Positions 3,316 to 44,884 of a DNA stretch of 64,000 nt are shown here, one piece after another. Numbering within the stretch: the first letter of the stretch is position 1; each line of letters begins with the position of its first letter. The notes below the pieces were generated by a model. It did no database searches, was not told the DNA's origin, and worked only from the letters and a program-made list of their open reading frames with translations. Source of the stretch: an uncultured bacterium. Its GTDB lineage: Bacteria > Omnitrophota > Omnitrophia > Omnitrophales > Aquincolibacteriaceae. The position numbers were made by a program, and so were the translations under genes. Location: assembly GCA_964482725.1 (NCBI GenBank), contig CAYZYT010000005.1, positions 24,133 to 88,132 of the forward strand. The letters run 5' to 3'.

Positions 3316-4731
3316 TTAAACAACCCTCGCGCGAAAAGTCTCATGATGCAGCCCGGTAAATTCCATCCGGACAAATTGCCCCGAATAGTCCTGATCCGCT
3401 TCGAAAATCACACGCCGGTCTTGATCCATGCGTCCGATCTGCTCCTTGGGATTCTCCATGTTGCGTTTTTCCACAAAAACCACGAATGTTTTCCCGATGA
3501 ACGATCGGCCCTTCTCTTCCGTGATTTTCCTCTGAGTCATGATCAGCTCCTGATTTCGAGAAGCCTTCAGGTCGGACGGAACATCATCTGGAAGCTGGGC
3601 TGCGGGCGTTCCTGGCCGCACGGAATATTTGTAGATAAAAGCGCTATCGAACCGTATCTCCTCGAGCGCGCGTCGCGTCGCCCCTTGGTCTTCCTCTGTT
3701 TCCCCTGAGAATCCCACAATAATGTCGGTCGTGATCGAGATCTCCGGCACGAGCTCCCGCAACCGATCGATCTTCGCTTTATAGTCCGCGTAGGTGTGCA
3801 GTCGCTTCATGCGTTTCAGCAAACGGTCCGAACCGGACTGGAGCGGCAGATGGAACCGGCGGCCGATCTTCGGATTCCGCGCGATCACTTGAAAAAGCTC
3901 TTCCGTCGCATCCTGGGGATGCGACGTCGTGAATGAAATTCTCTCCAAGCCGTCTATCTTGCAGAGGATTTCCAACAATTCAGGGAAGAACGTATCCTGA
4001 ACCGCGGGGAACGGGCAAGGATCAACGGTTCGGCCACTCGTTGTCCGTTGTCCGTTGTCCGTCGATCCGCCGTTGTAGCTGTTGACATTTTGTCCCAGCA
4101 GCGTGATCCATTTCACTCCTGCAGCGACAAGACGCCGCGCCTCGCGCTCCACTTCTGCGGCCGGCATCGAAACTTCACTTCCCCGCGTCATCGGAACAAT
4201 GCAGAACGTGCATTCTTTATTACAGCCGGTCATGATCGGAAGCCACGCATGGAACCCGCTGTCGCGTTTGGTGGTTTCGCTATATTCGATCGAGATCCCG
4301 TCCTGTTTGATCCGGGCGATCTGCTTCCGAACTTCATAAACTTGACGGATCATCTCCGGAAGTTCCTTGATGTGACGCGTCCCAACCATCAGATCCAGGT
4401 ACGGAAATCGCTTAAAGAGCTTTTCCCGGTGTTCCTCAACCATACACCCCATGAGACCAATGACAAGTTGCGAACGCTCCCTCTTTTCAGCGCCAAGGAG
4501 CCCCAGGCGGCCCCAGACACGTTCCTCGGCATGGTCACGGACCGAACACGTGTTCATCAAGACGATATCCGCACCTTGCGAAATAGAAGGCCTTCCCGAG
4601 ATCAGCACACCATCCCCGGGCCCCTCGCCTTCCACGACGATTTCAAACCCAGCCTTTTCCAGAATCCCCGCCGCCACCTGGGAATCGTAAGAATTCATTT
4701 GGCAGCCAAAAGTTTTCAATAATATTTTCAT
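3316..4731 (-). CDS. miaB: tRNA-i6A37 methylthiotransferase MiaB (radical SAM MTTase with TRAM domain)
   Basis: FGCQMN N-terminal MTTase motif, CNKECTFC radical-SAM cysteine triad and a C-terminal TRAM domain. Contains a short low-complexity insert encoded by a 3x CGTTGTC repeat at 4039..4059. Confidence 0.88.
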   Translation of the reverse strand: MKILLKTFGCQMNSYDSQVAAGILEKAGFEIVVEGEGPGDGVLISGRPSISQGADIVLMNTCSVRDHAEERVWGRLGLLGAEKRERSQLVIGLMGCMVEEHREKLFKRFPYLDLMVGTRHIKELPEMIRQVYEVRKQIARIKQDGISIEYSETTKRDSGFHAWLPIMTGCNKECTFCIVPMTRGSEVSMPAAEVEREARRLVAAGVKWITLLGQNVNSYNGGSTDNGQRTTSGRTVDPCPFPAVQDTFFPELLEILCKIDGLERISFTTSHPQDATEELFQVIARNPKIGRRFHLPLQSGSDRLLKRMKRLHTYADYKAKIDRLRELVPEISITTDIIVGFSGETEEDQGATRRALEEIRFDSAFIYKYSVRPGTPAAQLPDDVPSDLKASRNQELIMTQRKITEEKGRSFIGKTFVVFVEKRNMENPKEQIGRMDQDRRVIFEADQDYSGQFVRMEFTGLHHETFRARVV

Positions 4732-9238: not shown

Positions 9239-9952
9239 TCAGCAGAGTCCGGCCGCCTTGTCCCGGATCATCTCGATCAGGAGCTTCGCGATCTCCTCGA
9301 TCGGAACGCGGTCGGTGTTCCAGACGGCGTCATAAAGGAGCGGATCACGGATATCTTTATGGAAAAATGTTTTTACAAGCTCGGCCTTCGCCTTGTCTTT
9401 TTCCTCCACAGCCTCCCGCGCTTTTCTCGCATCGACCTGCAGCGCCCCCATCATGCGTTTCACGCGTGATTCCATGGTCGCCTCCAAGCGAACCTGAATC
9501 CCCAACGGCAGGTCGCGCGTCAAAAACGAGGAACCCCGCCCCACGAAGATCACTTTCCCGTGAAGCGCAAAGGCCCGGACAAGATGGAACATCTTTTTGA
9601 TCACGAGGTCCTGAGAGGAGCCGCCATAGATAAACTGGGAGATGATGTCTTCAGCGTGGGAATGATACTCTGTGCGTTGCAGCGAGTCGACCAGAGTCTT
9701 GAGCTTCGGATCTTGGGCGACCAGATGGCAAAGCTCCTGATTGCAAAGCTGCCACCCACGGAACAAGGGCTCAGCGTGAAGTTTTTGGATCTTTTCATCC
9801 AGGAGTGTGGCGAGAGCCTGCCCTCCGGCACCGGCCTGGCGCGAAATAGCAATAAAAGGAAAACAGCCCTTCTTAGGATCGAACTGAGGCCCCGCCTGAT
9901 CACGATAATGAAGACTGTCAATGAATGACGCCAGCTTATGGATCTCGCTCAT
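9239..9952 (-). CDS. cytidylate-kinase-like family protein (P-loop NTPase)
   Basis: 237 aa with FIAISRQAGAGGQALATLL, a P-loop-like N-terminus characteristic of the cytidylate-kinase-like family. Confidence 0.55.
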   Translation of the reverse strand: MSEIHKLASFIDSLHYRDQAGPQFDPKKGCFPFIAISRQAGAGGQALATLLDEKIQKLHAEPLFRGWQLCNQELCHLVAQDPKLKTLVDSLQRTEYHSHAEDIISQFIYGGSSQDLVIKKMFHLVRAFALHGKVIFVGRGSSFLTRDLPLGIQVRLEATMESRVKRMMGALQVDARKAREAVEEKDKAKAELVKTFFHKDIRDPLLYDAVWNTDRVPIEEIAKLLIEMIRDKAAGLC

Positions 9953-9978
9953 GGAGCCTCCCCGGATTTAGACTCTGT

Positions 9979-10057
9979 CATCCTGAGTCCCGCAGAGGAC
10001 GAAGGATCTCACTTTTACAGGAGATCCTTCCTTCGTCCTTCGGATTCTCTCAGGATG
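9979..10057. repeat. long imperfect inverted repeat (stem-loop) between the ACD stop and the cmk-like gene
   Basis: CATCCTGAG...GAGGACGAAGGATCTC / GAGATCCTTCCTTCGTCC...CTCAGGATG gives a roughly 30-bp imperfect stem. No downstream U-run. Confidence 0.5.
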
Positions 10058-12233: not shown

Positions 12234-15200
12234 TTAAGCTTTCGCCGGGTTAGGAGCTTCGATCGCGGGCTTTCCCTGGGCCAGATATTCGAAACGCTTC
12301 CAGCGGGCTTCAACATCCTTTTGCGCGATCTGGTAAAGTTTTTTGGCTTCCTCGGGATTACTCTTCATAATCATCTTGAACCGGTTTTCCATCATGAGAT
12401 ATTGCTCAAGCGGGATCGTCGGCGCCTTCGAGTCGATCACGAGAGGATTCTCCCCCTTCTCGGTACGACGAGGATCAAAACGGTAGAGGATCCATTGACC
12501 GGATGCGACGGCGGCCTTTTGGTCCTGTAGACCGTTGATCATATTGATGCCATGCGCGATGCAATGGCTGTAAGCAATGATGAGCGAAGGACCGTCATAC
12601 GACTCGGCTTCCTGGATCGCCTTGAGGGTTTGCTGGTCATTGGCCCCCATGGCGATCACCGCCACGTAAACGTTCCCGTAAGTCATGGCGATCATCCCGA
12701 GGTCCTTCTTACCGGCGGCTTTCCCGCCCATCGCGAATTTCGCGGTGGCGCCGCGCGGCGTGGATTTCGACGCCTGGCCGCCCGTATTGGAATAGACCTC
12801 CGTATCGAGGACGAAAACATTCACATTTTTCCCGGACGCAAGCACGTGGTCAAGACCGCCGTACCCGATATCGTAGGCCCATCCGTCACCCCCGAATATC
12901 CAGACGCTCTTTTTTACAAGCGTGTCCGCCAGGCTCAAAAGCTGCACGGCGTCGGCTTCCGCGCTAAGACCGGCCAGTTTCTTTTTAAGCGCCGCAACGC
13001 GTTCCCGTTGATCATAGATCTCCGCTTCGGTCTGTTGCGCCGAACTAAGGATCGATTGAACAAGATCCGCGCCCAGCTTATCCTGGAGCTTCACGAGAAG
13101 CTCGGAGGCATATTCTTTCTGTTTATCGATCGCCATCCGGAACCCGTAACCGAATTCCGCGTTATCTTCGAAAAGAGAATTCGACCAAGCGGGCCCACGG
13201 CCGTTACCATCCTTAGCCCAAGGCGTCGTCGGCAAATTACCGCCATAGATAGAAGAACAACCCGTCGCGTTCGAGATCACGGCGCGATCCCCGAAAAGCT
13301 GCGACACGATCTTCACATAAGGCGTCTCCCCGCAACCGGCACACGCACCTGAAAACTCGAAAAGCGGCCTCATCGCCTGCTGCTGGTTGATCATCCCGGT
13401 CTTCAATTTCCTGCGATCATACTCAGGGATATTAAGGAAGAACTCCCACTTCGGCGCTTCAATGCAGCGAAGCGGCATTTGCGGCTGCATATTGATGGCT
13501 TTTTTCTTGGGATCCGTTTTGCTCTTGGCGGGGCAAACATCGACGCAAAGCCCGCAACCCGTGCAGTCTTCAGGCGCAGGTTGAATCGTGAATTTCTGGC
13601 CCTTAAAATCCGGCATCTTCGCATCCGCCGACTTGAATCCCTCAGGGGCCTTCTCAAGACACTTCGGATCATAGACCTTCATACGGATCACGGCATGGGG
13701 ACACACAAAATTGCACTTGCCGCACTGGATACAAATATCCTGCTCCCAGACCGGGATCTCAAGCGCGATATTGCGCTTTTCATACTGAGTCGTGGCGGTC
13801 GGGAATGTCCCGTCCACCGGCATTGCGCTCACAGGGATCTCGTCCCCGCGGCCTTCAATGATCGCGCCAAGCACTTCCTTAACGAACGCCGGAGCGTTCG
13901 AAGTAACTGGGGCAAGCCTCTTGAGCTTGCTATTCGCAACCGCAGGAACTTTTACCTCATGAAGATGCGCAAGGGTCATGTCCACAGCATTGAGGTTCTG
14001 CTGAACCACGTCTTCGCCCTTTTTGCCGTAAGTCTTCTGAATGGATTTTTTGATCTGTTCAATCGCCTGCTCACGCGGCAGCACGCCCGAGATCGCAAAA
14101 AAGCAGACCTGCATGATCGTGTTGATCCTCATGCCCATACCGCTATCCGCCGCGACCTTGTAGGCATCGATCACATGAAACTTGAGTTTCTTTTCGAGGA
14201 TCTGTTTCTGAACTTCGACCGGAATATTCGGCCACACTTCTTCCGCGCTCCAGGGAGCGTTCAATAGGAACGTGCCGCCGGCCACGATATTGCGCAGCAT
14301 GTCATACTTTTCAAGGAAAACAGTCTGGTGGCATGCCACAAAATGAGCCTTACTAATCAGGTAAGGCGAGCGGATGGGCTCGGGACCGAAGCGAAGATGC
14401 GACACGGTGATCGCGCCGGACTTTTTGGAATCGTAAACGAAATACCCCTGCGCGTAATTTTCCGTGTTCTCGCCGATGATCTTGATGGAGTTCTTGTTCG
14501 CGCCAACCGTTCCGTCCGCACCGAGACCGTAGAAAAGTGCGCGCACGACCTTGTCGGATTCGATGGAATACTCCGGATCATAAGGAAGGCTGGTGTGGGT
14601 CACGTCATCATTAATGCCAATCGTAAAACCGTGTTTTGCTTTGCCAGAAGCAAAGAAATCAAACACGCCCTTGACCATGGCCGGGGTGAATTCTTTGGAG
14701 GAAAGACCGTAGCGGCCGCCATAGATCTTGGGCGCTTGATGGAACTTCGACCATCCATTCTGCGCAGCTTCCTGAAGCGCGCAAACGCAATCCAGATAAA
14801 GCGGCTCGCCGATCGCTCCCGGTTCTTTGGTCCGGTCCAGCACGATCAAGTTCTTGGTGGTTTGCGGGAGGAGGCCGACAAAACGCTTCACATCGAACGG
14901 ACGATAAAGAGAAACTTTGAGGCAGCCGACCTTCGCGCCTTTGGCGCTGAGCGCCTTCACGGTTTCCGCGGCCACCTCCTCACCCGAACCCATGATCACA
15001 ACGACTTGTTCCGCGTCTTTGGCCCCGGTGTATTCGAAAAGCTTGTAACTGCGGCCGGTCAGGCTCGCGAACTTGTCCATGGTTTGCTGAACGATATCGG
15101 GACATGCATCATAGAACTTATTGACCGTCTCCCGGCCCTGAAAATAAACGTCCGGGTTCTGCGCCGTACCGCGAAGCACGGGACTATCCGGCGAAAGCGC

Positions 15201-15857
15201 GCGGGCGCGATGCTCGAGGACCTTCGCCATGTTGATCATGCTGCGGATCTGATCGTCGGAAAGAAGGCTGATCTTTTGGACTTCGTGCGAAGTGCGGAAA
15301 CCGTCAAAGAAATGAAGGAAAGGAATGCGGGATTCAAGGCTCGCGACCTGTGAGATCAGCGCAAAATCCATGGCTTCCTGCACCGAATTGGAAGCCAGAA
15401 GCGCGTAGCCGGTCTGACGGACCGACATCACGTCCGAGTGATCGCCAAAAATCGAAAGTCCTTGGCACGCGAGCGAACGCGCGGAAACATGCATCGCCAT
15501 GGCGGTGAGTTCCCCGGCGATCTTGTACATGTTCGGGATCATGAGAAGAAGTCCTTGCGACGCCGTAAAGGTCGTGGTCAATGCCCCGCGCTGAAGCGCT
15601 CCATGCACCGCACCGGCGGCGCCGCCTTCGCTTTGCAGTTCGGCGACCGAAGGAACCGTTCCCCAGATATTCTTCTTTCCCTGGGAAGCCCATTCATCCG
15701 CCCATTCCCCCATGGTGGAAGACGGCGTGATCGGATAAATAGCGATACATTCATTAATGCGATACGCAACATGGGCAACGGCTTCGCCGGCATCCATGGT
15801 GACAAATTTTTTGCTTACGGATTTTGCTTCGGATTTTTCGAGAGCTTGTTCGGCCAT
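12234..15857 (-). CDS. por: pyruvate:ferredoxin (flavodoxin) oxidoreductase, single-polypeptide PFOR
   Basis: 1207 aa with two 4Fe-4S ferredoxin motifs (CIQCGKCNFVCP, CTGCGLCVDVCP) and a TPP-binding GDGWAYDIGYGGLDH block. It lies 6 nt upstream of the ACD gene. Confidence 0.9.
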   Translation of the reverse strand: MAEQALEKSEAKSVSKKFVTMDAGEAVAHVAYRINECIAIYPITPSSTMGEWADEWASQGKKNIWGTVPSVAELQSEGGAAGAVHGALQRGALTTTFTASQGLLLMIPNMYKIAGELTAMAMHVSARSLACQGLSIFGDHSDVMSVRQTGYALLASNSVQEAMDFALISQVASLESRIPFLHFFDGFRTSHEVQKISLLSDDQIRSMINMAKVLEHRARALSPDSPVLRGTAQNPDVYFQGRETVNKFYDACPDIVQQTMDKFASLTGRSYKLFEYTGAKDAEQVVVIMGSGEEVAAETVKALSAKGAKVGCLKVSLYRPFDVKRFVGLLPQTTKNLIVLDRTKEPGAIGEPLYLDCVCALQEAAQNGWSKFHQAPKIYGGRYGLSSKEFTPAMVKGVFDFFASGKAKHGFTIGINDDVTHTSLPYDPEYSIESDKVVRALFYGLGADGTVGANKNSIKIIGENTENYAQGYFVYDSKKSGAITVSHLRFGPEPIRSPYLISKAHFVACHQTVFLEKYDMLRNIVAGGTFLLNAPWSAEEVWPNIPVEVQKQILEKKLKFHVIDAYKVAADSGMGMRINTIMQVCFFAISGVLPREQAIEQIKKSIQKTYGKKGEDVVQQNLNAVDMTLAHLHEVKVPAVANSKLKRLAPVTSNAPAFVKEVLGAIIEGRGDEIPVSAMPVDGTFPTATTQYEKRNIALEIPVWEQDICIQCGKCNFVCPHAVIRMKVYDPKCLEKAPEGFKSADAKMPDFKGQKFTIQPAPEDCTGCGLCVDVCPAKSKTDPKKKAINMQPQMPLRCIEAPKWEFFLNIPEYDRRKLKTGMINQQQAMRPLFEFSGACAGCGETPYVKIVSQLFGDRAVISNATGCSSIYGGNLPTTPWAKDGNGRGPAWSNSLFEDNAEFGYGFRMAIDKQKEYASELLVKLQDKLGADLVQSILSSAQQTEAEIYDQRERVAALKKKLAGLSAEADAVQLLSLADTLVKKSVWIFGGDGWAYDIGYGGLDHVLASGKNVNVFVLDTEVYSNTGGQASKSTPRGATAKFAMGGKAAGKKDLGMIAMTYGNVYVAVIAMGANDQQTLKAIQEAESYDGPSLIIAYSHCIAHGINMINGLQDQKAAVASGQWILYRFDPRRTEKGENPLVIDSKAPTIPLEQYLMMENRFKMIMKSNPEEAKKLYQIAQKDVEARWKRFEYLAQGKPAIEAPNPAKA

Positions 15858-16113
15858 TTTATGATTCCTTTAGGTTCGAGGTTTATGATATCGATCCAAT
15901 GCAGGCAAAAATATGTCTGCGCAAAATACACGGATAGCTCCCTGCTGCGTGCTGCTTGTCCTCCGGATATTCCAAATATGAGGCATGGAACGGGGGAACT
16001 TCGAAAGGCTTTTCAAGTCGCGTGAGAGCGTGCGGATGGAGGCCATCAAGCTCTCGCAACTCGCGGACCGCATTGTATGATTTTGGAAAGCATTTTTCAA
16101 GCAATTATTGCCC

Positions 16114-16206
16114 GGAGGGAGGAAGGCGGATGGTGGATGGCGAAAAATCCTCGGGAAAGATAATGAAATGATCAAAACCAAAGCTCCCTCCTCCATCCGC
16201 CATCCC
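16114..16206. repeat. G-rich/C-rich hairpin repeat element, copy A
   Basis: GGAGGGAGGAAGGCGGATGGTGGATGGCG ... CTCCCTCCTCCATCCGCCATCCC. A second copy, about 80% similar, is at 46561..46635. Confidence 0.55.
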
Positions 16207-16266
16207 TTTTTAGTTCTTAAGCGCCCAAAACTTGAAATGCCCACCGATATCGCATAGTATGACGCC

Positions 16267-16662
16267 ATGTCCCACGACACGATCCGTCTTCTTCAATTCA
16301 TGGTCTGCAAAGACTTCGAGCCCGGTGAACAGGATTGCTACACGGCCAATCTCGTCCGGAGCAATCTCCATGTGCCGTCTTTTCCCTACCACTTCGAGAA
16401 ACTTTACGCCGTCACCTGTTGGCGCAAGGACAAGATGTTCCACAAAGAAGTGATCGAATATGAGACCGAGGACGGCCGCATCCTTAAGACACCGCCCATG
16501 GACATCGAGCCCGTCACCTCCAGCGTCCTCTTCCGCTGGCACAAGCACGCGTTCCCGCCGGACCTCGAGATCAAAGAAGACGGCCTGCTCCATATCCGCG
16601 TTATTCTGGACTGGAAAGTCAATTTTGAATCCTATCTCATGATCGAAAAAAGGCCGGCATAG
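16267..16662 (+). CDS. hypothetical protein
   Basis: 131-aa ORF with GC-rich codon third positions. Its stop overlaps the start of the downstream permease (TAGCATG). No family recognised. Confidence 0.4.
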   Translation: MSHDTIRLLQFMVCKDFEPGEQDCYTANLVRSNLHVPSFPYHFEKLYAVTCWRKDKMFHKEVIEYETEDGRILKTPPMDIEPVTSSVLFRWHKHAFPPDLEIKEDGLLHIRVILDWKVNFESYLMIEKRPA

Positions 16663-17924: not shown

Positions 17925-20900
17925 TTATGCTGCCTGATCGACCGATTGACGAGCCGTATACTCCTCCACAAGTCTTTCTAAATTGAAGACCAGTCCTTTG
18001 GAACTAAATCCGATAAAGGCCGGTATCCCAAACTGCTCCAAATAACCGCGGATCAGCGCCGGCTTCGCAAGAATTTTGTTTTGAGTCTCCTTCTCGAGCG
18101 TCGCGAAACGCAGGATCGCTATTCGAACCGCGGTTAATGCCAACTCCCGCAACCGGGGATCCGCGATCCTGCCGACCTCCGCAAGAATGGAGTAAATACC
18201 GAGATTGTCCATGCCTCGATCCTGGGTCCAGAAAGAAACGACCAGATCGCTACTCGACCGGACCGCACGACTCACCGCATTCTTATTTCGTAACGACATC
18301 ACGGAAGCCACCTTGTCCCAGGCTCGCCCAAAAGGCTTCTCGCCGGGACCACTATAAACCATCAGTCGTGAGGGTTTTAGCATCTTAATCATCTCGAGGA
18401 CCTCCTCAGCGATCCCATCACCAGGACGGTCCATCAAGAGAACGAATGACGGTTCCTTACCGTTCATGACGAGCCCTGCGGCCACAACATCAAGCATAGC
18501 CTGATCTCGTGCGATCTTAGCATTGTTCAGCTGTGATGCATTGTCTGCCAATCTGTCAAAGCTCAAGGATTCTTCGTTGAACACTGCACGGCTCCGGATC
18601 CGCGATGCGAACTCCGTCGTGTCCCCAAATTCCCCAAGGAGTTCTTGAAGCCTCTGATCAAGGGCCGGAGAACGAATATAAGAGACAACCTTTTGAAGAG
18701 TCGTGTATTGATCCAATTCTTTCCCGAATTGAACGATCCTTGTCTCGATCAGTTTCTCCATCTTTGCCTGTTGCGTGACCGCACGCACGCGTAACTCAGC
18801 CCGATATTTTTCCACCGACCCGGCGCTCTGAATTCCATGGGCCACATTTCCGGGATTCACCTCCAATAATCCTCCAAGTTTCACGCGCAACTCAGCCCGC
18901 ACCTTCGCGCTCGCCGGTTCTACAGGACGGCTGTCGCCCACGTATTTGATCGCGGAGGCAATGTCGGTCACGATCAACCGGATCGTTCCGTCCGGATCGA
19001 GCTTGAGCATGACATTCTCGCTACTCTCCAACGTGATCCCGGTAACAGCATATTCCTCCGCATTAATTTTTATCGGGCTTGTCATAATCTCATTTGACTG
19101 CCCCGCAAGCATCGTCTTGATCGAACCCAACACTTTACGATCCGGCGCGGCGATCGCGTTGCAAACCAATCGAAGATCTCCCGCCTGCGGGACTTTATCT
19201 AAATTCCCCGCGACAAGATCTCTCAACCATATCCCATCGATCAAAGGGCTTCTCGATAAACGTTTCCCCTCCATTTCATACACATCGAGGATAGGATTCA
19301 CTTCGATCACAACTTTATGATCCACACCCCCGATCTGAACCGAGCCGATCTCTTTCTGATCGAGCTTCGTTTTGACAGCCGAAGTCACCGCTTGGTAGAA
19401 CTCAAGGAGTTTGAGACTGATATCGCGATAGATCTTGTAGGCGGCATCCTCAACCTGATAAACCTCGCTATCGGCTCCCTGCCCTAAAGAAGGCTTCGTC
19501 CTCACAGTCTCCGCGGAAAGCCTCCGGTTTTCTTGACGCTTTTCAGCCGCCGGGGGCGCTTGTTGTTCCGGAAACGACTGCTTCATTTGATCCACGAATT
19601 GGCGATAGGCCGACATCAGCGGAGCCTCTTGGATCCAATCTCCATTTTCAAGCAACGGGATCAAAGTCTTGTCCAGGATGGCGTGAGTCTTTGCGACTTC
19701 TGAATCAGAAAGGTTATATTTCTTACCCAGTTCACTCCGCAATGTTTTTTCTCTCTCAGGGAATGCTTTCTCGAACGCATGTTGCGCAAAAAAGTACCGC
19801 ATGGCATAACTCGCAGCCCGGATCAGGGTGCTCGGAGCCGAAGTTCCGGGGTCTGCAAGATCTTGGCTATTCTTCAAATAAGCCTCTGCGGAGCGAATTA
19901 AGGGCTGCGGCTGCCCTAGTTGGAATGAAACCACTTCATGATCTTGAAGAGCCCTCACAAGCCTCTCGATCGCCATGAATTCTTTCATCCTCTTCACAAC
20001 CCCTTCATCGGGAACATCCGATTGCTTCACCAACTCAACACGGAGGATATGACTTATCTCATGCTGGAGACGCCACAGGTTGACCGCGTCGCTTTCTTTG
20101 CGCCAATCATCACGCAAAACAATAATAAAACCTTCTGGGTCAAGCGTCACTCCCGGCGTCCAGGCATCCACGCCAGTTGCGACCTCCTCCGGGCGATTTT
20201 TACCGGCAAGGAAACGTTCTAGGGTCAGGTTCACCATCCAGTTGTCCTCCTTAACCCTCAACATTTGAGTCTGATTTCCATCCCGCACAAAATACACCGT
20301 CGTCTGCGGAGGCAGGGCCCGGAGCATTCGCTGGATCTCATCATCCATGAAAAGCTTGTCGATCGCTTGTTTGTCCGGCGCCGATAAAGCGTAAGAGATC
20401 TTGGGCTCCGCCCGCAATTCTGCTCGCGTCGCCCGTTGCGTCTCCAACCTAGCGGCAGACCGCGCCAAGGGCTCGCTCCAGCGGATGCAAATCTCCCGAA
20501 GGAAAATTTCGAACTTTTCGATCTGTTTTTTATCTTGGATCTTAATACTCATGCCCAAGATACCCTTCACCGCTTTTCCCAAATCGAGGTAATGTTGAAG
20601 CCGTTGCCCCCTGACTCCCGGAAGCTCCCCATCTTCACTCAAATGGTCCACAAAGAATTTTAATCGCTCTATCGGATCTTTGATGGAGGCAGGGATAACA
20701 AACCCGCTTACGGATTCTAATCTCGGACCTTTCCCTGTCGTGTAAAGTTTAAGTTCCTCATCCAACTGCAAAAGATTCATCGATTCTAATTTCTTCGCAT
20801 AATCCGGATCCTGACCAATGATTCTTTTGCTTTCAGCCCCGGTCCTGGGATCGACGGCCCAAAGATCCTGAGGAACCGTGCTATCCTTTTGCTGGTTGTG

Positions 20901-23900
20901 GAGCGAAATCATAATCTCATCGAACGTCTGTTTTTTCGAGTTCCTGATCTGTCCATACCTCGCGGCAATACTCCGACCCTCCGAGCGCGCGACACGGGCC
21001 TCCGCCCCTCCCGGAACGGGTTGCCGGTCATAGGCCCAGCCACGAGCCTTGATCCTATCGATGCCGATTCCCTGTTTTCCCCAGCTATCGTGGGCGTACC
21101 CCAAATCCAAAGAAGAGGCTTGATCCTTCACCGCCAGATCGTACGTCCGGAACTCGATCGCTTTCGATTTGGAGCCGTCAAGTTTCACGTAGAGGAAAAC
21201 CGGCATATCGAGGTTCAGCTGATTTCCATGCTCCAGAGCATTTTTAAGCAATTCCTGGACAACATACCGGCCATCCCCGTTTAAGGTAAGCCCGGCATCG
21301 TCAAACTCCTGCCCGATCCGGATGAGAACCGGCAACAGTTCCTTAAATCTCTTATTTTTTCCGGACAAACCCTGGGTCTTAAGCCGAAGAACGCTCCCGG
21401 CGCGAACGGCATCCGCAAAAGCACCGGCAGGGATCAGCGCCGGGTTCGCAAGGTCAAATTCTTGGAAGGCTTTAGACCCCGTTCGCTCCCGGATCGCCGC
21501 CGTCAGGTCGGCGCGGCCTCGAGATACCGTTACATTCATCCGGTTCTCGGAACGGAGCATCATCCGCGCATTTCTGACTTTGGCATCAACACCGGAGTCG
21601 AGCTGCCCCGCCTTACTCTCCGGTGAATCCCAGATCGCCCGGTTCCTCTTGATGAATTTCTTGGCCGAACCCTTGGAGATCAACCCCTCGGACTTAGCCA
21701 AGTTAATCCAGCAATCCTGCAAGTCGCCATAAGCTTTCCAATACGCCTTTTCGGCGGTGTTATAGGCAGCCACGCTCTCCGCCGGCAATTTCGCTCCGGA
21801 GAGCGACTGGGCGATCACTTCTTCGGCCTGGAGCACAAGTACGCTTTTCTTCGCCTCAAGTTCTTCGCTCTTGGCCTGTTCCCCCCGGAAACCCTCGATC
21901 ATTATCCGTTCCAGGCTACGTTGATTCTTGTCCTTCAGGCCGGAACGCTCTTCTTCCAGGATCATACTCCGGAGCTTTGGCCCTATCTCATTCACAAAGA
22001 CAGAATAATTCTCCTTCAAATCGTTCAATAACGGCGCCAGAACATAATCCAGTTGCAATTCGAGCACGAAAGCAGCCATTTTCGATTGACTGACCGTCTT
22101 TCCATCCTGAATGTCACGCGCAACCTCATCCTGGATCATCGGGATCTGCAATTCGCTCGATTGATAGGCTTTCGATGCATTGGCAAGAAGTGAGTCATAG
22201 ATCGCGTGAGAGGCCCCGCGTAAGTGAGCTATAAATGCGTCCGGGGCTTGCGCCCGAATTTGAGCGAGCAGGTCCGCAAACGGGAGTTCCCTTTCCCACA
22301 TGTTCGCACCCCTCACCCGAAGCCACGATGTCAGTTGGTCATACCACTCCGTGCGAAGCCCCGCGCCGGATTCCTGAACACCCTGAAGAACATAGCCCGG
22401 ATTTCCGCGCCACGGAATGTCTCCCAAAGATTGACGGTCCTTCCAAACCTCGAACGGGACCCTCTCAAACCGGAAACTGAAGACCGGATAACGCGCCCGC
22501 ATCGTATCGATCACTTTCAAAATCAGCGGTGTCGTCATCGGATTCTGCCGCATTTCCTCGAACGCCTCAGGGGTCTCATGGTAGTTTTGGTAAGCCTCAT
22601 AGAGCTTCTTGAGATCGGAACGCTGCAGAAGAGCTTCCACTGTCGGGACTTTCGATTCCCCGGCGGTGATTTCATGGGCATTCACATAATCGAGCAGTCC
22701 ATCCGGAGAAAGCACGAATTCCTGGATATAAATAAATTCCGGAAGACTTGCTTTCCCGCGCGCATAGCGCCGGTACGCCTGATCGATATCTTTCAACGGT
22801 GCGAGAGCATTTTTTTCCGAATCATGAAGTACATAGCCAATGTACGTCTGCGAAACCTCGATGATCTGTGTTACTTTATACAGCACTGAGCGCCACATCT
22901 TGGCGGAGACATACGCAGCCGTTCCTCCGACCCCGAGAGCCAGTGTTACCGCAGCGAGCACGCCCAACATGACACCCTTGAGACTCACCTTCCGGATCTC
23001 CGATCGAAGGACTTCGGGTTGGACGGCAGAAACGTCACCTTTAAACTGGAGCAACGGAACAGCTGCCGCGGTTTTAATGGCATCTGCAAATTCTCCGACC
23101 GGTTCATGAGAGAATCCGCCCGTATCATGGACCATCGCAAAGAAGATCCATGGAGCGATCTTCCCGAGGAGCCGGCCCAACCGCCCTTTCTGGATCGCAG
23201 ATACGGTCTCAAGAAGATGGGCTGTTTCATGAGCCAGAAGATTGCTCCGCTTGTTGATATAACCCTTCTCATCGATGCCCGAGTGGCGAAGCTCCTGCAC
23301 AACGTCTTTGTTTAGAATGAAAACATTCCCGATCAGAAGCCCCGCAGCCCCCATCCAGCCCGGCCAGAAAACAACACGTTTGATCCCGAACGGTTTCGCG
23401 AACTGCAACACCTCATCCACCAGCCTCTTTTCATCATCGGTCTTTGGTTTTGTCTGAAGGACCCTCTTAAAAACAAAAATAAGCGGAAGCGCCCACACCC
23501 CAAGCTTCGTCAATCCGATCCAGAATTCACGCTGAAACTCCCCCTGCAAAACGCTTTGAGCCGCTCCGACCGCTACACCGATAGCACTTCCCGATACATT
23601 CCAGAGGATAATGACGAGAACGCCTAAAAGGATACTCACCGCAAGTCCCGCCCACGTAACTGACCGGTTACTACTCAAAATCTCTTGAATGTGGGGCAGA
23701 TTCGAGACTTCCGATACAGACTTCCCGGTCAGTCGTGACTTGATGCGCTCCAAAAAGGTATAAACGCTCGAGCCCAGAAGGGCCGCACGCGACACAGCCC
23801 TCATCTGCCCGGCCAAGCTTTCTTGAGTGTTGGGTTCATTCGGTGACGGAACGCGCAGGAGCGATACAAACTTCACCATGTCTTCTGTACGTTTGACAGA

Positions 23901-26900
23901 ATCGAGATCACTTGTTCCCGCATCACCGGAAAAGAGTTCCAGATCGTTGACGGAGACCCGCCCATAACGACCCCGGTTAATCTGATTCGCCGCATGCACG
24001 ATCGTATAAGCCTTCTGGAAAACAAGAATACCCAAGAACCTCAGCAATGCGGCAACGCGATACTGGAACATCAGATTGCGCATGATCTGCCCATTCCGAT
24101 TGTCCGTCAGCCAATCATGGGGAAATCCGTGAAAAACAAATTGCGGTTCATCCTTTGACGCGGGGATCAAAAGGGTCTTTCGCGCGAGGGCTTTGTAGAA
24201 TTCGATCGCAACATAGCGCTGGATCCACGGCAGATAGATATCTTCACGCTTGAAAGCCCCGCGCCCTTCCACCTGAGGGAGCGGGATCCGAATGACAAGA
24301 TTCAACTGTTTGATCAGATATCGCAAAGATGGCGGGATCAGCGCCACATAGCGACTGCTTTCATCGAGCGAAGCGACGCGAAGACCCGCGTTGTCAACCA
24401 CCTGCCTCACAGTCGCAGGAACACTGAGGATCCCGAACTTGCCTTGCACCCGATCCGACGGCTCCGTGGCATACGGATCGCGCCACTCGGTCTCACTCAG
24501 CGTCTCGCTCGCAAGGGCAAGCGGCGTTCTCGCGGCTTCTCCGTTCCTGAAATAGATCTGAAATTGTTCGTCTACCGCCAGACCCGTAAAAATCAGCCAG
24601 TTCCTCCGGCTAATGCGTTGCGCAAGCTCGGGAATGGTATTGCGAACATTCTTGATACGGCGGGTCATGACCCCGTCTTTTTTCATAACTTCATTCACTG
24701 GCCGCAGATCGGTGATCTTTCGAAACTTCACGAGGCTGATGTCCGTCACTTCACCGGAATCGCTTCGCTCAATTTTGATCTCGAAATAGTAAGCCTTCCC
24801 CCCCCTTCGGGTGAGGATCTCAACACGGTCCGCATCTTGGTAAAGCGGCCCTTTTCCGCCCGAACCATACATCCCCGTGAGAGCCCGGAGCAGGTCATCC
24901 GCTTTCGTCGATTTTTCGATCACAAGCGCCAATGGATCCTCCGCCCCGCCGGAGTCATCCAGTGTCTGTTCGACGAATTCCGATTCGCCGTCTTCGCCTT
25001 TCTGGATGTAGAAATCCACTTCGAGCTCACCCCGGGAAAGCCCCATGGTCTTCATCGCATCCTTGGAATTCTGCGCGATCTCCCGCACCGCAGCCCCGCT
25101 CTCGTGACGATCGACTGCAAGTCGGTTGCTGGTCTCCAGTTTTTCATCCCGCTTGGGAAGTTTCCCGGAGGCGATCACATCTCGCGTTTCTTCCGGAGTT
25201 ATGACCTTCCGGCCCTTTTGTTCACGGACCGCATCGGCCTGCGTGATCTGGGAGATCCCGATCTTTTGGCCTTCCGGAATAAAATCTTCACCCGCAGGAA
25301 CAAAACGCTCCGCAACACGGACCGGATCCAACCGAGCGCTCAGAAACTCCAGATACGACACCGCATCCCCCAGCGCAAATTTCGGATCGTGAGGATTATC
25401 CCAATAAGCCTGAAACTGTTCCTCCGAAAGATCGGCGAGGCTGCTCAGCATTCTTGTCTTATATTGAGGATGAGACTCGAGCCTCGCGAGTTGCTCCATC
25501 AGGATCGTATTTGCTTCACGGCTGCGAGCGCTTAATCGGGAAAGATACGTCACAATTCGCATCGCTTGATCCGGAGCCAAACGCTCCCCTTGCTCCCCTC
25601 CCGAACGGATCAGGGCCTGAAGTTTGGAGAAGTTATTCTGATCCCTCTGCCATTCTTCTTTGACCGACCATCCCATGCCGAGACCATTGAAAAGATCGGG
25701 AGTAACCTCCGGCAATGAAATATCTCGGGAGTCAGACGCAAGCTCAAAAAGACCGCGGAACAGGTTGGCAAGGTAGCTACGCCCCGTCTCATATTTCTGC
25801 ATCGCGATCTGAGCTTCGTCTGAGGCAAGAAACTGCGCCAATCCATTCTTTAGCAGCTCAAGCCTTGCTGCAAAACGAACGAAAGGCATTTCCTCACTCT
25901 CGTAATCCGCAGATTCCCCGGCCCTCGTAACAAGGAATTTTTGACGGACCGCATTCTCTTCCGCTTCATAGATCCCGGTTATGAGGGGCTGCAGCACCGC
26001 CGCGACATCTGCCCGGTATCTTTGCGGGACCGTGTCCCAATACCCCTGAGTCCATGCTTTCCGGAAATCTCCGGACAGTCGATCTCGCAATGCAGGAGCG
26101 CTCTCGCGTCCCTTGATAAATGTTCCCGCCCAGACCTGATCACGTTCGTCTCTGGCAGGTTTTGCCTCCGGAGTCGCCGGCCCAGCCTCCGCAATGAGCT
26201 TTTGAAGATCCGCATAGGACAAAGGTGCCCCGAGAGGGACTTGGCTCTCCGACCCTTTTGGAAATTTAAACAATAACTGTAATCCGTTGTCGGAAAAACC
26301 AACAAACGCACCGTAAATGTCCGTTTGCTTATCCATCAATGTCTGATGAACGGCATAGGAATCTCCCCCCCCTCGTTTTCTGGAGATGATAAAAAAACTG
26401 TGCCCATCGTAGTAGCCCCGAACACCGGATGAATACTCAAAGACCCCCTGTGGCAATGCTTCCAGCCGTCCCATCAACTCCGGAGTCATCAGGGCTTCAC
26501 TCCATTCACGACCCCAAACAAAACCCCCAGGAATCTCGGAAGGCGCCGTCGCGCGAAACTGGGGCCGGCGATTCTCCTCCTTCAAGATCCGGTCTTTTTC
26601 AGAAAGTTCTCTCAGAGCGGGCTGGGCCGCCGCGGCCGCGGCCTCCTTGACCGCGACTTCACCTCCGTGGGCTTCAAAATCCCAGGTTTGATCACTTTTA
26701 GGTGTGATCTTGATCGAGACGCCCCACGCCGGTAAAACTTCGGGAGAGGATTCATATTGAAATCCTTGAAGGTACAGCACGGTGAAGTATTTTCCGTCTG
26801 TGGCGATCTTGTGCATTCCCCCTGCCGCCACCGGCATGCCTTGGCTCAACTGATCTTCTTTGAAACGCGTAAGGGTGAACTCCCCCGCATTTTCCGAAAT

Positions 26901-29900
26901 GCAGAAAACAGCTCCTTTCCATTTAACCAACACGGACCCATCCTTGGAAATCTGACTTTTCAATCCTGTCTCTGAGACGGCCTTCCACTCCGTATCCCCC
27001 TGAACCACACTTTTGAATTTTTCGCTTTCTTTCAAGAGAGCGGCGGCAAGACGAGCTTCCCTTTCCCGGCGAGCAGCAAGCTTTGCTTCACGAGAGGGCA
27101 CCACTTCCTCCTCCGGAAGAGCCGGCACCGAAGAAACCGCCGGCGCAAGATTTTCCTCTACCGCGGCTTCTTTCTTTGCCTCAACGGGTTTCCCCTGAGA
27201 AAAATCCAGAGGGACATAGCGAGTGGCTTGAAAATCCGTATCCGCGAAGATCAAATACCGGCCGTCAAAGTCAATCAACCGCATCCCCTCCGGCACACGA
27301 ATATCAATCTCCCGCACCTCCTGCCCCGTGAGCAAGTAGGCTTTCCCCATATCGGGGACGACGTAGACTTTACCGCCCGCGGATGAAAATTCCTTGAAAT
27401 AGCCCGAACGCGTCTCCACGCTATCTTCGCCCTTGATTTTTATGGCATCCACGGAGGCAAAACTACCATCCGCATCGATATGGAGTTTCTTAGCAGCCCT
27501 ATCAAGGAAAAGCATGCTTGTATGGTGCATGTTGTATCTAAAAATACTGTTGGTCTGCGGATCCAAAACAACTTGGTCGAATTTATTTTCAGCGTTGGGG
27601 ACGTGCACAAGAAAATAGTCGCTTTCGGCAATATATTTGGCTGGAAGCTCGGTGTCCGGAGAAACCCCGAGCTGATCCGCGAGGTTTTTTGACAATTGAA
27701 TTCTCTGCGTTTCAAAGTTCCAGTCGACGTCACCTTCATAATGCGCAAACGCGCCAGCGTGCGATTCGAAAGTACCCCCGACCAGATGATGCTCCTGAGA
27801 CAAGTTTTTAGACACAAGCACTTTATGAAAAGCTCGTCCTTTACCCGCGGCCATATTGAGCACGGTCATCCGGCCGCCTCTGATATCTCGCTGCGCTTCC
27901 TCCGGGCCGACGCGTCTGTAGCTCTCTTCCCTATCGCCTCGGTAAAAAACAGATATCACTTTCCCGTTGGCATCTTTGGCCGCGATCAATGACGTGGGAA
28001 GGTTTTCTTCGACAAGAGGAACATCATGTATCTCGCTATTGTCCGGCATGATGAGGACGCCCCTTCTCGCCTTCGAAGGAATCAACCGGTTGTACCATTT
28101 CGGATTTCTAGGCTTCAAATGGATCACGTTCCCGATTTCTCTTATCTCCACCCCTTCGCCTTCATCGCGCCATAATTCGAGTCTCGTTTCATTTTCCTGC
28201 GTTTCATTTTCCTGCGTTTCTATATTAGTAATGGCAGCACCCACCTTATTCTTCCAACCTGTCTGCGGCACAGCCACCACATAGCGATTGAGGCGAGATT
28301 TAAGAAATCGAAAGGTCACGGGATCACCGCTTTCCCAAACGGTTTTTCCGGTTCGTGAATCGAAAACCTTGTAAATATCACCGGCTTTCCCAGCCCCTTT
28401 GACTTTGTTTGATATAAACCGGTTATCCGGGGAAAACTCGACGTCACCCTCAAAATCTTCAAGGACCGTTTCGGCCTTGATCTGATCCCCTTCCCGCGTC
28501 AGGGCAAAGACCTTGACAAAATAACGGCCAAACACATCCGCCTGAAATGTCATAGCATGAAATTCTTTTCCGTTTACTTTGTCCTTTCTCAAGAATCGGG
28601 AGCCTGTGATTCTCATGCTGGATGAAACTGGCGTACTGAATTTGTTCAAGCCCAGCGTTGAAAAAGGCATCCTCTTCCCAGTACTAAGATCCATGAGCTC
28701 CAAGGGCGCATTGCCGGAGGACAGGGAGATAAATTCCTGCAGAGCGTCCTGCGGTATGACCCCCATCGCGGAAGGTTGGGCTTGGGTTGCCCCAGCCTGA
28801 ACCGGAACACCCTCCGATTTCTTGGCCGGAGCCTGAGAAACAGGCGCGGCAGGTTTCGAGAAGTCTGAAGGCATCGTCACCAGGAACTTCGCCGCTTGAA
28901 CAGAATCAAGAAGTTGCTGTTCGGCCACCGCCATAGGCTCGAGTTGTTCTTTTTGAGAAACGTGTTGGATCTCGAGATGCGGTTTAGGTTTTGTGATCTC
29001 GTAGTCCGTCACAACTTGTTTGGAGGTAAGGATATTGACCGCTTCAAGAAGGCTCGTGAATTCATATTCTTCCTCGGGAGCTCTCCAGCTCATTAAAGCC
29101 AACTCCAAGAGCCGACGGGTCGCAGGCACATCCGGCAAAGCAATCATCTCCTCGGTTTCAAAAAAGGGAAGATCTTCTGCCGCGAGGATCGCTTTCCTCG
29201 TCATCCGGTAGTCGCGGATCGCCTTAAGCGATTCATCCGTGAACGGCACGATCACGAGCGCTTTCCCGCCGAAGCTCAACCGGACCTTCTTGCCGTCCAA
29301 TACGACACGTGAGGGCAACGGCTCGCCTCCGATCTGTTGGAGGCTCACCACACCGCCCCAGTCGAATAGCGCGGGATCCAGATAAAGAACCGGACGCTCA
29401 CGTCCCTCCTTGTCTCGAGGAACCTGCACTTTCGCGAACGCGCGGTCATGCGGCAAGAAGACATATCCTTTCGAAATCAACTCCTCCCGCAGAGCCGACA
29501 TCGCGTTCTTGGCATAAAGGCGAAGGTCATTAACCGTGGTCGCATAGCCGGGGTTCCCCTGCACAAGCGCTTCCAACCCCACAATGATCGTATTCACGTA
29601 CCGGATCTTCTCTTCCGGTGTCAGCGGATGCTTCGGATCCGTGATGGAGCTGATCAGATACTCAATCGCAGATTTAAACTTCGATTTCCCCTGGAGGTTC
29701 GTCGGTAGCCGCGGCTTATCCCAGGAATCAGGAATGGGGACTGAGGTGCTCAGCTCGATCATGACGCCGGTGTCCGCGGTCGCAGTAGGCTCGAGATCCT
29801 CGGGGACCCGGACCGTGGCCACCGCTCTGCCATTTCTGAGAAACGAGATTTCACCCCGAGGGCGCTTTTCGTCTCCCACCAGTTTAATGGGTACGGTTTT

Positions 29901-32900
29901 AGAGCTTTTTTGAGATTGCCTCGGAACAAACATGAACGCTATGTTGCGTCCGTTCATTCCTTCCCCGTTATCCAAAACCGAGATCGAATGACCGTTGGAA
30001 CGGATCAAAACATCTTTGCCCCGCGCCGCTTCGCGGGAATATCCGCTCGGCCCCGCGGGAACGATCTCGCGTTTGCTTTTAAACCCGTTCACTTCATCGG
30101 GTTTGTTATTGCCATACTGGGTCTGGATCGTCATTCCGGGGACATAGCAAAAGACCCGGTGGATCTCGTTCATCAGCTTTGCCTGAGCCTCTTCCGATAT
30201 CTTCTCGCCGGTCGTGACTCGGACGAGCGTCCCCTTTTTGAGATCGACTCCCGTCTCTCGCGTCGCCATATCCGCACGGATCTTCCGGACCTGGATATAA
30301 CTCTGTCCCTTCGTATCTTGCAAAATAGTCAGTTTGTAAACATTTCCACTTTCTTGGGCCGTGTAAACATCCACGCGATCGCGCCCCGTCCCTTTGAGCC
30401 ATGCGAGGATCTGCTTCACCCCTTTGCCGAATTGGCCCAGGCCGGCGCCCAATGCGTCCAGACTGTTAGCCACCGCTTCGATCAGACCCTGGGTCGGAGC
30501 ATTAGGATTTTGACCATCGATCGCTTTATCCTGGAACCGGGGATCCTCGTAGGTTCCGTTCAGGATCGTATCCAGATCGGCTGCCGTTTGCCCCCGATCA
30601 AGGAGCGCCTCAAGGATCCTGTCATAATCTTCTTTATCGCGGTCCTCCGGCTTCTCAGCGCGGCTGGCGGTAATACCAAAGTGAGCCAGGAGATCCTGCT
30701 TTTCGCTTGGCGTGAAATTCTTCTCGGAGAGACGCGTCATCGCTGCAACATAGTGATCCATATCCGGGCCGTTAAATCCTTCCCGGTCGTTGCGATAGTC
30801 CGTGGCCGCTTGCCTTGTCTTCACTTCCTTAGACGCCGGCCGTCCCTTTTCACTTCGAGCAAGAGTCCGATCCGAAACCCAATTCCAAAACTGACCCCAG
30901 TCGGGCATCGTAATGGATCTCACCTCGGCACGAACGAGGGGGGCTTCCCCCAATCCCTGGCCTCGGACATCGGAACGTTGCATCAGCTCCGGAGGATGGA
31001 TCCTATCGCGATTGCGAAGCGCCGATTCGACCGCCTCACGCGGCACCACCGTGCTGTCCAAGGATATCTGTTCACCCGTCGCAACATGCGCACAGACCAG
31101 CTTAACGGCCTTCATAAGATCTTCGACAGCGGACTCGAGGATCGGCCAGGTCACATCCGTAGACGAAGCGTTGCCCTTTGCGATCGCGGAATGAAGTTTT
31201 TCGATCTTGATTTCAAGGTCAGAAAGTTTGCTCTCAAGGAGATACGCGTCGAAAGCCTCTCCGACCGCTTCCTGAACCAACTCGGCCGGAACGCGCCGCG
31301 ACAGGTCCTCCTCATAGCCCTTTTCGTAAGATTTCATTTTGGAAGTTGCAATGATCTGCGTCCCGCCATAGGGCGCGATAAAAAACGGTCCTTTTTTATC
31401 CCCCATGAATGCTTCCAGGAAATTCCACATGGCGACCACATCGGTACGCATGATTTCCAGTTTCTGCAATTCAGTGACTGAATTCTGCTTCGGGGCGGAG
31501 GTTGGGTGCCACCAAGAGGCATCGACCTCACCAAGGAGTGACATCAATCGGGAATTCAACTCGTGTCGCAATCCCCGTGAAACCATGTGCCGGACCTCGT
31601 CAAGCGTGAGCGATCTCCCATTAACTTTACCGTTTACAATCTCCATGTGGGATATCGTCTCATCCGATGTTACCGGGGATATGATCCGGCCCTCAGAACG
31701 GCTTTGAACACCTAAGTCCTTCGCGAGCTTGCCGTGAGCCTCTACCAGAAATTTTTTCGTTAGCATCCATTCTTTAGGCCATGTTTTTGTGGAATCAAAA
31801 CCCGGAAATTTCGCGAACGGAATATGGACATACACCTCCGTCCCCTTATCCAGATACGCGACAAGAAGTCCTTGGGCTCCATTGTTGCGTCTGCCCGTCA
31901 CATAATTCACGACGTTCTCAAAATCGAACACCGCTCCCGCCTTGGTGACCCGGAGCCCTCCCTGGACCGCGGGCACTTGCGACAGGACAACATCGTATGA
32001 ATTCTTGCGCGACGGATCCCCGTTGTTCTGATTAATTTTCCCGTTGATCTCAAAGTTCTTCTTCATAATTGTGTCGTTGCCCATCACCAGCCGCAATTCG
32101 GAGCGAGGGGCAATCCCGGAGCGGGTTTCGGCGCGTCCCTCCGGAATAACTGCGGATGAAACAATCTTGTCACCCCGTTTGAGCGCTGCCTTCAAATACA
32201 AAGGGGTATAGGTTACTTCCGAGAGAACAATTCCTGGATCTTTAACTGTAAAGTCGTTATACGAAGCAGTCTCTGTTCCGAGCATATTTTGAACCGCAAA
32301 ATCCATCGTCGCAGCATCGGCAAAGATCAAATCCCTGCGTCCTGCCGAATCTGGCCGTTTACTGACCCAAGCATTCGGCGCCATCGGTTTTCCATCCTTA
32401 TCGAATGGAGGCTTAAAACCATATTCCGTCACCAGCTTATCAATCACCGCGGGGATCACCATATTCGGATCGGTTCGATTTGCGTTGGGATAGAGCGCGA
32501 AAAATGCATCCAAAAGCTGCCTCATTAACCCGCGAGGCAAAGAGGAATTGATTATGCATCCACGAATCGCCAGATTTCCTTCCGTCGGGATCCCATACAC
32601 CATCAGATCCGGCATCCTGCTTTCGGGCACGCGAACAAGACTCAACCCCTGACTTCCCTTCGGCAAAGTTTTTGAAACATAAAAAGGATGCTTTGTCCCG
32701 TCAGGCAGCCCAAAAACAACCACTTCCAGATTCCCCTCACGGCCGCCTTTAACCGTTCCATAGGGGTTTTTAATATCTAACGCCTCTACCGCAGACGCTG
32801 CTTGTTCCTCAGCTTTCGAACTGGCGCGTTCCTCGGAAACGACGGCCACCGCTGGTTTTTCCATCACCTCAACCGGCACAACTTCCTTCGGTTCCGGCAG

Positions 32901-44842: not shown

Positions 44843-44884
44843 ACTTTGACACCTTGATACTCTGATACTGTGACACGTTTTTTA

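Follow-up and report, generated by a model that had tools for sequence, protein, structure and literature searches.

Tandem heptanucleotide repeats have been known from cyanobacteria since 1990 and from Xanthomonas since 2015, and neither their function nor the mechanism behind them has been established. The cyanobacterial STRR heptanucleotide families, treated by Mazel et al. in 1990, are reportedly present as several families per genome, dispersed, mostly intergenic and unexplained. Of the GGGAATC heptameric repeats of Xanthomonas, 70-75 are arranged in convergent inverted pairs that can fold into stem-loops, and the repeats are found at the same intergenic sites in related species with highly variable length and sequence, their function being unknown (Rehm et al. 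2015, PMC4692102). Here we analyzed a stretch of 64,000 nucleotides from an uncultured bacterium (contig CAYZYT010000005.1 of assembly GCA_964482725.1, positions 24133 to 88132; hereafter the window), in which two hairpins, copy A beside por and copy B beside argS, are built from tandem heptamers with a complementary partner arm. The window was assigned to Omnitrophota, since its ArgS has matches at 91% identity only in uncultured metagenome-assembled genomes of this phylum, and a literature search for heptameric or palindromic repeats of Omnitrophota found no description of them. Our preferred reading, held with moderate confidence, is that A and B belong to a class of palindromic heptamer repeats found throughout the lineage, selfish or neutral, and not tied to the neighboring gene. 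New here are the many coexisting repeat units (termed flavors below), the replacement of one flavor by another at fixed slots, in-frame copies within genes, and arms that bracket small genes.

The two hairpins are located as follows.

16114-16206: copy A, heptad-repeat hairpin of the GGAnGGn flavor, identified by sequence, Tandem Repeats Finder, folding and an arm duplex of -34.4 kcal/mol

46561-46635: copy B, heptad-repeat hairpin of the GGAnGGn flavor, identified by sequence, Tandem Repeats Finder, folding and spacer analysis

Both were noticed in an initial annotation made from the letters alone, and sequence, repeat finding and folding agree with the positions given there and with the description of a purine arm facing a matching pyrimidine arm. 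In each copy, four GGAnGGn heptamers make up a purine-rich 5' arm, which faces a complementary, pyrimidine-rich 3' arm of the CCnTCC type. In copy A, the 5' arm (16114-16142) reads GGAGGGA GGAAGGC GGATGGT GGATGGC G and the 3' arm covers 16184-16206; in copy B, the 5' arm (46561-46591) contains GGATGGA GGATAGC GGATGGA GGATGGC and the 3' arm covers 46610-46635. Tandem Repeats Finder reported periods of 7 and 14 at 16113-16142 and 46561-46589, and the heptamers of both copies show a 14-nt super-period. Identity between A and B was 25/29 (86%) for the 5' arms and 17/23 (74%) for the 3' arms, where about 80% had first been estimated. Runs of three consecutive GGAnGGn units, with at most one mismatch allowed, occurred four times in the window, exactly at these four arms, and not at all in 20 shuffles.

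Copy B folds at -36.2 and -38.2 kcal/mol on the two strands (z-scores of -3.6 (+) and -4.4 (-)), with none of 200 shuffles equally stable. For copy A, folds of -33.8 (+) and -39.1 (-) kcal/mol correspond to z-scores of only -1.1 (+) and -2.1 (-), which are marginal because G-rich/C-rich shuffles fold well too and the loop is long (~41 nt, against ~20 nt in copy B; the two loops are unrelated). Structure prediction, proposed earlier as a check, thus returned hairpins for both copies, that of A being only marginally beyond its shuffles. The claim that both lie in the same orientation, with the G-rich arm first on the mRNA, proved uninformative, as it is true on either strand. A purine arm facing a pyrimidine arm makes a palindrome that reads alike on both strands, and with loops that show no relationship no orientation can be assigned to A with respect to B; copy A aligns with the reverse complement of B (20/23) about as well as with B.

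The two copies do not stand alone. At least nine further hairpins or arrays in the window are built in the same manner from other heptamer or octamer units.

3999-4065: GGGAACG/CGTTGTC element, in frame within a MiaB/RimO-like radical-SAM open reading frame (ORF; 3316-4731, minus strand)

34809-34912: GAGACYG element, in frame near the N-terminus of the giant ORF 17925-35114

43391-43468: element of the octamer GAGGCAnA, at the miaA|hflX junction

44445-44484: GTGTCAAA-octamer arm, pairing with 44843-44879 (duplex -38 kcal/mol)

44843-44879: partner arm of the preceding, the pair bracketing an ORF of the 23S rRNA intervening-sequence protein (IVP)/bAvd-like kind

47040-47095: GAGGCAAA-octamer arm (GAGGCAnA type), pairing with 47560-47600 across ogt (47089-47556)

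47560-47600: partner arm of the ogt-bracketing pair

48153-48180: solo array of AAGAGAC heptamers, inside a nadE loop that holds other flavors in relatives

62191-62313: GGGAACG element, in-frame insertion in the giant ORF 49342-63669

63023-63118: GAGACYG element (GAGACTT/GGTCTC), 34-aa in-frame insertion in the giant ORF 49342-63669

63376-63452: GGGAACG element in the giant ORF 49342-63669, at the place where the giant ORF 17925-35114 has its GAGACYG element

The duplexes of the ogt-bracketing arms range from -36 to -55 kcal/mol. The window alone holds five flavors, and by our tally about half of its elements fall in the small intergenic part of the sequence. Members of the class have about four heptamers (sometimes octamers) per arm, with a purine- or A-rich 5' arm and a complementary 3' arm, and about ten flavors are distinguished; the loops are unconserved, with lengths of 10 to over 40 nt, and some span a whole small gene. 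An ungapped inverted-repeat scan overlooked most elements owing to bulges and G-U pairs, and Lfold without a filter gave too much noise.

Arrays with a period of 7 numbered 40 across 588 kb of Omnitrophota loci, where no other period from 5 to 12 gave more than six; loci from outside the phylum (113 kb) yielded none, and shuffled sequence about one. The 78 strong arrays found in 784 kb fell into ten unit clusters, five of which held 69 of them. Flavors are a small recurring repertoire, against an estimated ~1,200 possible canonical heptamers. Higher-order patterns within a flavor, such as GGGACTC-GnnnCTC-GGGACT and GAGTACG-GCGTACG, recur across slots and genomes, and such shared patterns point to copying, not independent birth. 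The GGATGG flavor was also found in locus L002 of our metagenome set (between ogt and rsfS), in L010 (downstream of a transporter gene), in L018 (within nadE) and in L045 and L066 (the por slot); its members have no fixed position relative to start codons, a point against a shared cis-regulatory RNA. No common terminal motif was seen across flavors. Stop codons of the arms in six frames numbered 232 against 254-265 expected, and 23 of 104 arms were stop-free against about 12; as this depletion is weak, the idea that the arms are shaped to avoid stop codons was dropped.

Taken by construction, the elements combine at least three tandem 7-nt units, several dispersed families, inverted pairs, and a conserved location with variation, as in repeats of the STRR and Xanthomonas type. 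The coexistence of dispersed heptamer families resembles the STRR sequences, which differ in being mainly direct arrays, whereas a hairpin with a matched partner is the rule here, and also in units and taxon. With the GGGAATC repeats they share intergenic tandem heptamers, inverted pairs and a conserved location with variable content; however, Xanthomonas, from another phylum, has one dominant unit where about ten flavors occur here, and flavor swaps at a slot, in-frame copies and gene-bracketing arms are not reported in the Xanthomonas paper (PMC4692102).

Flavor turnover was evident at the slot of copy B, which is surrounded by the following features.

46647-46970, minus strand: rsfS (PF02410), upstream of copy B on the mRNA

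44885-46546, minus strand: argS, downstream of copy B

47048-47075, minus strand: putative rsfS promoter, TTGCTT-17-TATAAT

The gene order nadE-ogt-rsfS-argS-(IVP)-miaA-hflX-tal/pgi is conserved, and in the window the ~100 nt from the rsfS stop to the argS ATG consist of 10 nt, a 77-nt hairpin and 14 nt. A hairpin of at least 17 bp occupies this slot in 17/17 loci with ArgS at least 83% identical, in spacers of 55-125 nt with folds between -24.6 and -54.4 kcal/mol. Six flavors were found there: GGATGGC in the window only, and GGGAACG, GTACGGC, GGGACTC, GCGCAAC and CAGACTA in relatives, scattered over the ArgS neighbor-joining tree. In L012, the slot is a 39-nt unstructured spacer, and in distant relatives it is reduced to 0-10 nt. 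The L032 rsfS|argS spacer (~9880-10000) carries a TCCGCCA…TGGCGGA palindrome of ~40 nt nested in the 3' arm of a GGGACTC hairpin; this palindrome is unrelated to its host hairpin and recurs in the ogt|rsfS spacer of L005. Because rsfS is preceded by a TATAAT that is kept ~60-70 nt upstream of its start in about 20 loci, and because the promoter scan found no promoter-like site between rsfS and argS, copy B is probably co-transcribed within an rsfS-argS mRNA.

Copy A lies in a divergent spacer between por (12234-15857, minus strand) and a 131-aa ORF (16267-16662, plus strand), where two promoter-like sites were predicted.

16072-16100, minus strand: promoter-like site of por, TTGAAA-17-TACAAT (scan, 10/12 matches)

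16232-16260, plus strand: promoter-like site of the 131-aa ORF, TTGAAA-17-TAGTAT, ending 6 nt before the ATG

More than 15 metagenome loci keep both sites in the spacer orthologous to this one. The predicted por start is at ~16065-16069, i.e. downstream of copy A, which is thus predicted to sit exactly between the two divergent -35 boxes and outside both transcripts. In relatives (more than 20 metagenome loci), the same slot holds a GGGACTC, GTACGGC, GGATGnn, GGGAACG, GCGCAAC or GAGCCAC hairpin, or none, while the genes on either side have a DNA identity of 86-91% and both promoter-like boxes stay conserved. L045 has the flavor of the window at this slot within similar immediate flanks; by eye, its arms are roughly half identical to those of copy A, each pair of arms is self-complementary, and the loops of the two orthologues are unrelated. 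As flavor, unit composition and even presence at a given slot vary among related species, the elements are taken to undergo fast turnover as DNA, through copying, replacement and loss, independently of the gene next to them.

These slots bear directly on the regulatory role first considered, in which one kind of cis-regulatory RNA would serve both por and argS, its GGAGG tracts acting as a Shine-Dalgarno (SD) sequence or sequestering one. The distances given for it were accurate (257 nt from the start of copy A to the por ATG at 15857, and 14 nt from copy B to the argS ATG at 46546, where ~250 and ~15 bp had been stated), GGAGG and GGAGGG do occur in the 5' arms, and no SD-like sequence is found within the 14 nt separating copy B from the argS ATG, leaving argS without an SD of its own. 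However, the GGAGG tracts are base-paired in the fold and lie 60-80 nt from the ATG, and the orthologous slots hold flavors that are not SD-like or nothing at all; the idea fails because SD-likeness is peculiar to one flavor. Copy A is close to the 5' end of por, as had been claimed, but upstream of its predicted -35 box. A transcript starting downstream of the element had itself been named as speaking against the regulatory role, and this is where the por start is predicted. Rfam returned no match at gathering threshold across the whole window. Hence, we regard a shared SD-type regulator as extremely improbable; for lack of an Rfam match, a riboswitch was rejected as well. An intrinsic terminator was likewise rejected: the stems are 20-30 bp long, the sense strand has no U tract at A or B, and no terminator-like site was detected at either.

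We consider it very unlikely that the G-rich arm acts as a G-quadruplex or i-motif modulating transcription or translation, as proposed for heptamer repeats of Xanthomonas and Nostoc. The GGAnGGn arms contain eight GG runs and their nearest published analogues, GGGAATC and GGGGAYT, form G-quadruplexes in vitro (PMC4692102), but GG runs permit two-tetrad quadruplexes only, which would have to form in competition with a C-rich partner arm that matches perfectly. At the A and B slots, most flavors have no G runs (GCGCAAC, GTACGGC, CAGACTA, GTGTCAAA), and the quadruplex fails as a general explanation, as SD mimicry does.

Sister elements of A and B were also found inside genes. The two hairpins at 62191-62313 and 63023-63118 are in-frame insertions in the giant ORF 49342-63669 relative to its paralogue 17925-35114, and both giant ORFs carry a hairpin, of differing flavor, directly before a conserved VLIQDAH motif. 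In NadE, the loop from MYETFL to LAMENLQAR contains solo arrays or full hairpins of varied flavors in at least 12 genomes, and in the MiaB-like enzyme one element is located inside the radical-SAM domain. Insertion in frame without disruption of the ORF is reminiscent of the Rickettsia palindromic elements (RPE), which were reportedly described by Ogata et al. in 2000. The likeness is to ~100-nt palindromes that lie in frame within genes, are translated as extra loops and also have intergenic copies; it concerns the sister elements and not A or B, and is one of behavior, as RPE families are defined by a conserved full-length sequence, not by tandem heptamers. The elements settle where a compact genome has room for extra DNA: directly behind stop codons between co-transcribed genes (copy B), in the gap separating two divergent promoters (copy A) and, in frame, in protein loops that vary.

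Dispersed, multi-copy hairpins with slot turnover agree in spirit with the small mobile family, of the repetitive extragenic palindromic (REP) or MITE (miniature inverted-repeat transposable element) kind, that the initial annotation had offered as its other explanation; the observation behind it is real, its regulatory interpretation is not supported, and the defining features of REPs and MITEs are missing. No target-site duplication was found at the borders of A (…ttgccc|GGAGGG…CATCCC|ttttta) or B (…ttcagt|GGATGG…CCCTCC|gatata), and the loops provide no conserved interior, which excludes a MITE; a formal REP was rejected as there is no conserved head motif and copies also lie inside genes. 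REPINs and REP elements are mobilized by RAYT transposases (Bertels & Rainey 2011, PMC3116915). Our elements resemble REPINs in forming hairpin doublets with many copies and several families, in occupying intergenic slots of compact genomes and in being targets of further insertion. They differ in the absence of a GTAG-like head motif, in their periodic arms, in less uniform copies, some of them intragenic, and in that a scan of 20 window proteins brought up no RAYT, the material at hand being the 64-kb window and fragments of related loci.

An alternative in which the hairpins are selected elements of polycistronic mRNAs, serving 3' exonuclease protection, RNase III processing or cistron insulation, with structure under selection while sequence drifts or is swapped, is unlikely in our judgment but a serious contender. 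Hairpins start 0-10 nt past the stop codon at most junctions of the nadE-ogt-rsfS-argS-miaA-hflX cluster, stems of 20-35 bp have the length of RNase III substrates, and an ORF of the type found in 23S intervening sequences is bracketed by such arms. The presence of a hairpin at slot B in all close relatives, together with compensatory stem changes, fits purifying selection on structure. Moreover, the sense strand was the more stable one in 24 operon hairpins versus 12 (mean difference 2.5 kcal/mol, Wilcoxon p = 0.01), a modest bias from a set that contains some doubtful items, and G-U pairs in operon hairpins showed the same sense-strand bias (104 versus 73), which hints at an RNA-level constraint. 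Occupancy, compensation and strand bias therefore weigh against selfish or neutral repeats, and further points do so too: no transposase-like family or RAYT was detected in the 20 window proteins scanned, neither target-site duplications nor a conserved terminus mark the insertions, copies of the same flavor are not near-identical, unlike those of recent transposition, the scatter of flavors over the tree could partly stem from homologous recombination between species and not from new insertion, and the promoters placed around copy A are consensus predictions, not mapped 5' ends. Selection at the RNA level, on the other hand, does not account for slot A, which lies between divergent -35 boxes and is predicted to be untranscribed, yet has the same turnover. 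Essential genes also contain solo arms and full hairpins in frame, and cleavage there would do harm; of the four in-frame hairpins of the window, three (3996, 34806, 63019) are more stable on the antisense strand, and many orthologous junctions are empty. An RNA-level role at cistron boundaries is possible, if weakly supported.

Arms of the same style bracket small genes in the rsfS-argS neighborhood. The argS|miaA junction of the window contains a 121-aa PF05635 ORF (23S rRNA intervening-sequence protein/bAvd-like; 44477-44842) that is exactly enclosed by the inverted GTGTCAAA-octamer arms, an arrangement also present in L018; in L011, only the 3' arm of the bracket remains, beside a different inserted gene. 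The start of miaA is probably located inside the 3' arm. In six other genomes, argS and miaA share an ATGTGA stop/start overlap, four have a TAGGGnn hairpin and one an AAACCCG hairpin, while small selfish-type genes are found in the remaining ones. Between the TAGGGnn hairpins of L017 and L020, compensatory changes from A-T to G-C are seen. The junction appears as an insertion hot spot in L002 (11662-12110), L004 (1802-2227) and L011 (11698-12140), with small genes that are GIY-YIG-like and DUF559-like by eye; another palindrome (CCCTCTCCC…GGGAGAGGG…GGGTGAGGG) flanks them, and L002 also has it in its NadE loop, in frame.

Arms of the GAGGCAAA type enclose ogt alone in the window and an IVP-ogt pair in L005 (8505-9500) and L012 (8605-9580). 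The ogt genes of these three loci are 70% identical to one another and ~42% to the ogt of other relatives, while the flanking nadE and rsfS stay 75-93% identical, and ogt with its arms looks like a replaceable cassette. Bracketing of ogt is not a general rule, being limited to the window and L001, plus the IVP-ogt pair of L005 and L012.

Described ORF-containing 23S rRNA intervening sequences (IVS), such as the Coxiella IVS with S23p, provide the closest parallel to the IVP bracket (PMC4990558). Here, too, a long stem (44445-44879) carries a PF05635 ORF in its loop; IVS stems serve as substrates of RNase III, and IVS are regarded as selfish. In contrast to those elements, the one in the window is located in the argS-miaA mRNA spacer and not in rRNA, and its octamer arms are styled like the hairpins without an ORF. 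The IVP brackets of the window and L018, the IVP-ogt brackets of L005 and L012 and the divergent ogt alleles hint that the ORF-less hairpins could be non-autonomous derivatives of PF05635-bearing hairpin elements, the small four-helix protein and a polymerase of host or element driving a hairpin-targeted copy-and-replace process. We put this forward as a speculative and rather improbable origin. If true, copy-and-replace would exchange flavors at fixed slots and give rise to the in-frame insertions of host genes and phage genes, and it would supply a mechanism both for the spread of IVS/IVP and for the nature of heptameric repeats of the STRR type.

Returning to selfish or neutral heptamer repeats, their spread may proceed by copying or gene conversion that is aimed at, or overwrites, existing hairpins, as exemplified by the palindrome of L032 nested within the arm of another hairpin. 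Replication slippage would create the 7-nt periodicity, and template switching within the hairpin, or selection, would maintain the complementarity of the arms. At slot B, the palindrome may be tolerated because a closed stem takes up most of the spacer, leaving the rsfS stop and the argS start no more than ~25 nt apart; once transcribed, its 25-bp stem may incidentally form a barrier to 3' exonucleases or an RNase III site.

A scan of IMG/VR with two flavor patterns identified contigs classed as viral, from higher-GC organisms (L095, and also L088/L090, L092 and L094) that are dense in heptamer hairpins of several flavors, so that the class is not confined to the Omnitrophota clade of the window. 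L095 (1-7832, GC 0.65) contains 15 arrays in 7.8 kb, four of them in frame in an ORF (147-1946) that is terminase-like by eye.

The Omnitrophota lineage constitutes a natural experiment, with a conserved gene order, dozens of genomes and fixed slots at which a hairpin is rebuilt from a different 7-mer, and both the origin of the elements and the question of whether they are selfish or functional can be addressed with existing metagenomes and metatranscriptomes. Masking the elements is advised when Omnitrophota genomes are annotated, as they lengthen ORFs, displace apparent start codons and resemble SD or regulatory motifs.

Several further observations concern the neighboring genes. The predicted por leader of ~210 nt (15858-16069, minus strand) is conserved across 15 loci and contains two conserved helices, AAGUCG…CGACUU around a variable hairpin and GUUCCAG…UGGAA…CCGGAGGAC. 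It has no Rfam match and is a candidate cis-regulatory RNA for pyruvate:ferredoxin oxidoreductase, with covariation limited by the closeness of the sequences. The 131-aa ORF on the other side of copy A belongs to no Pfam family and is conserved in more than 30 metagenome loci; as the -10 box ends 6 nt ahead of its ATG, which is the case in all relatives, its mRNA is probably leaderless. The giant ORFs 17925-35114 (5,729 aa) and 49342-63669 (4,775 aa) are distant paralogues with 25% identity at the N-terminus, the latter with 60-nt tandem repeats at 53616-53751 and 59748-59880. Finally, the end of the window (63861-64000) is CRISPR-like, with two 28-nt direct repeats (CAATCAGCGTAGTGGAAATCTTTGTTCC, minus strand) separated by a 34-nt spacer in an array that continues past the window end.

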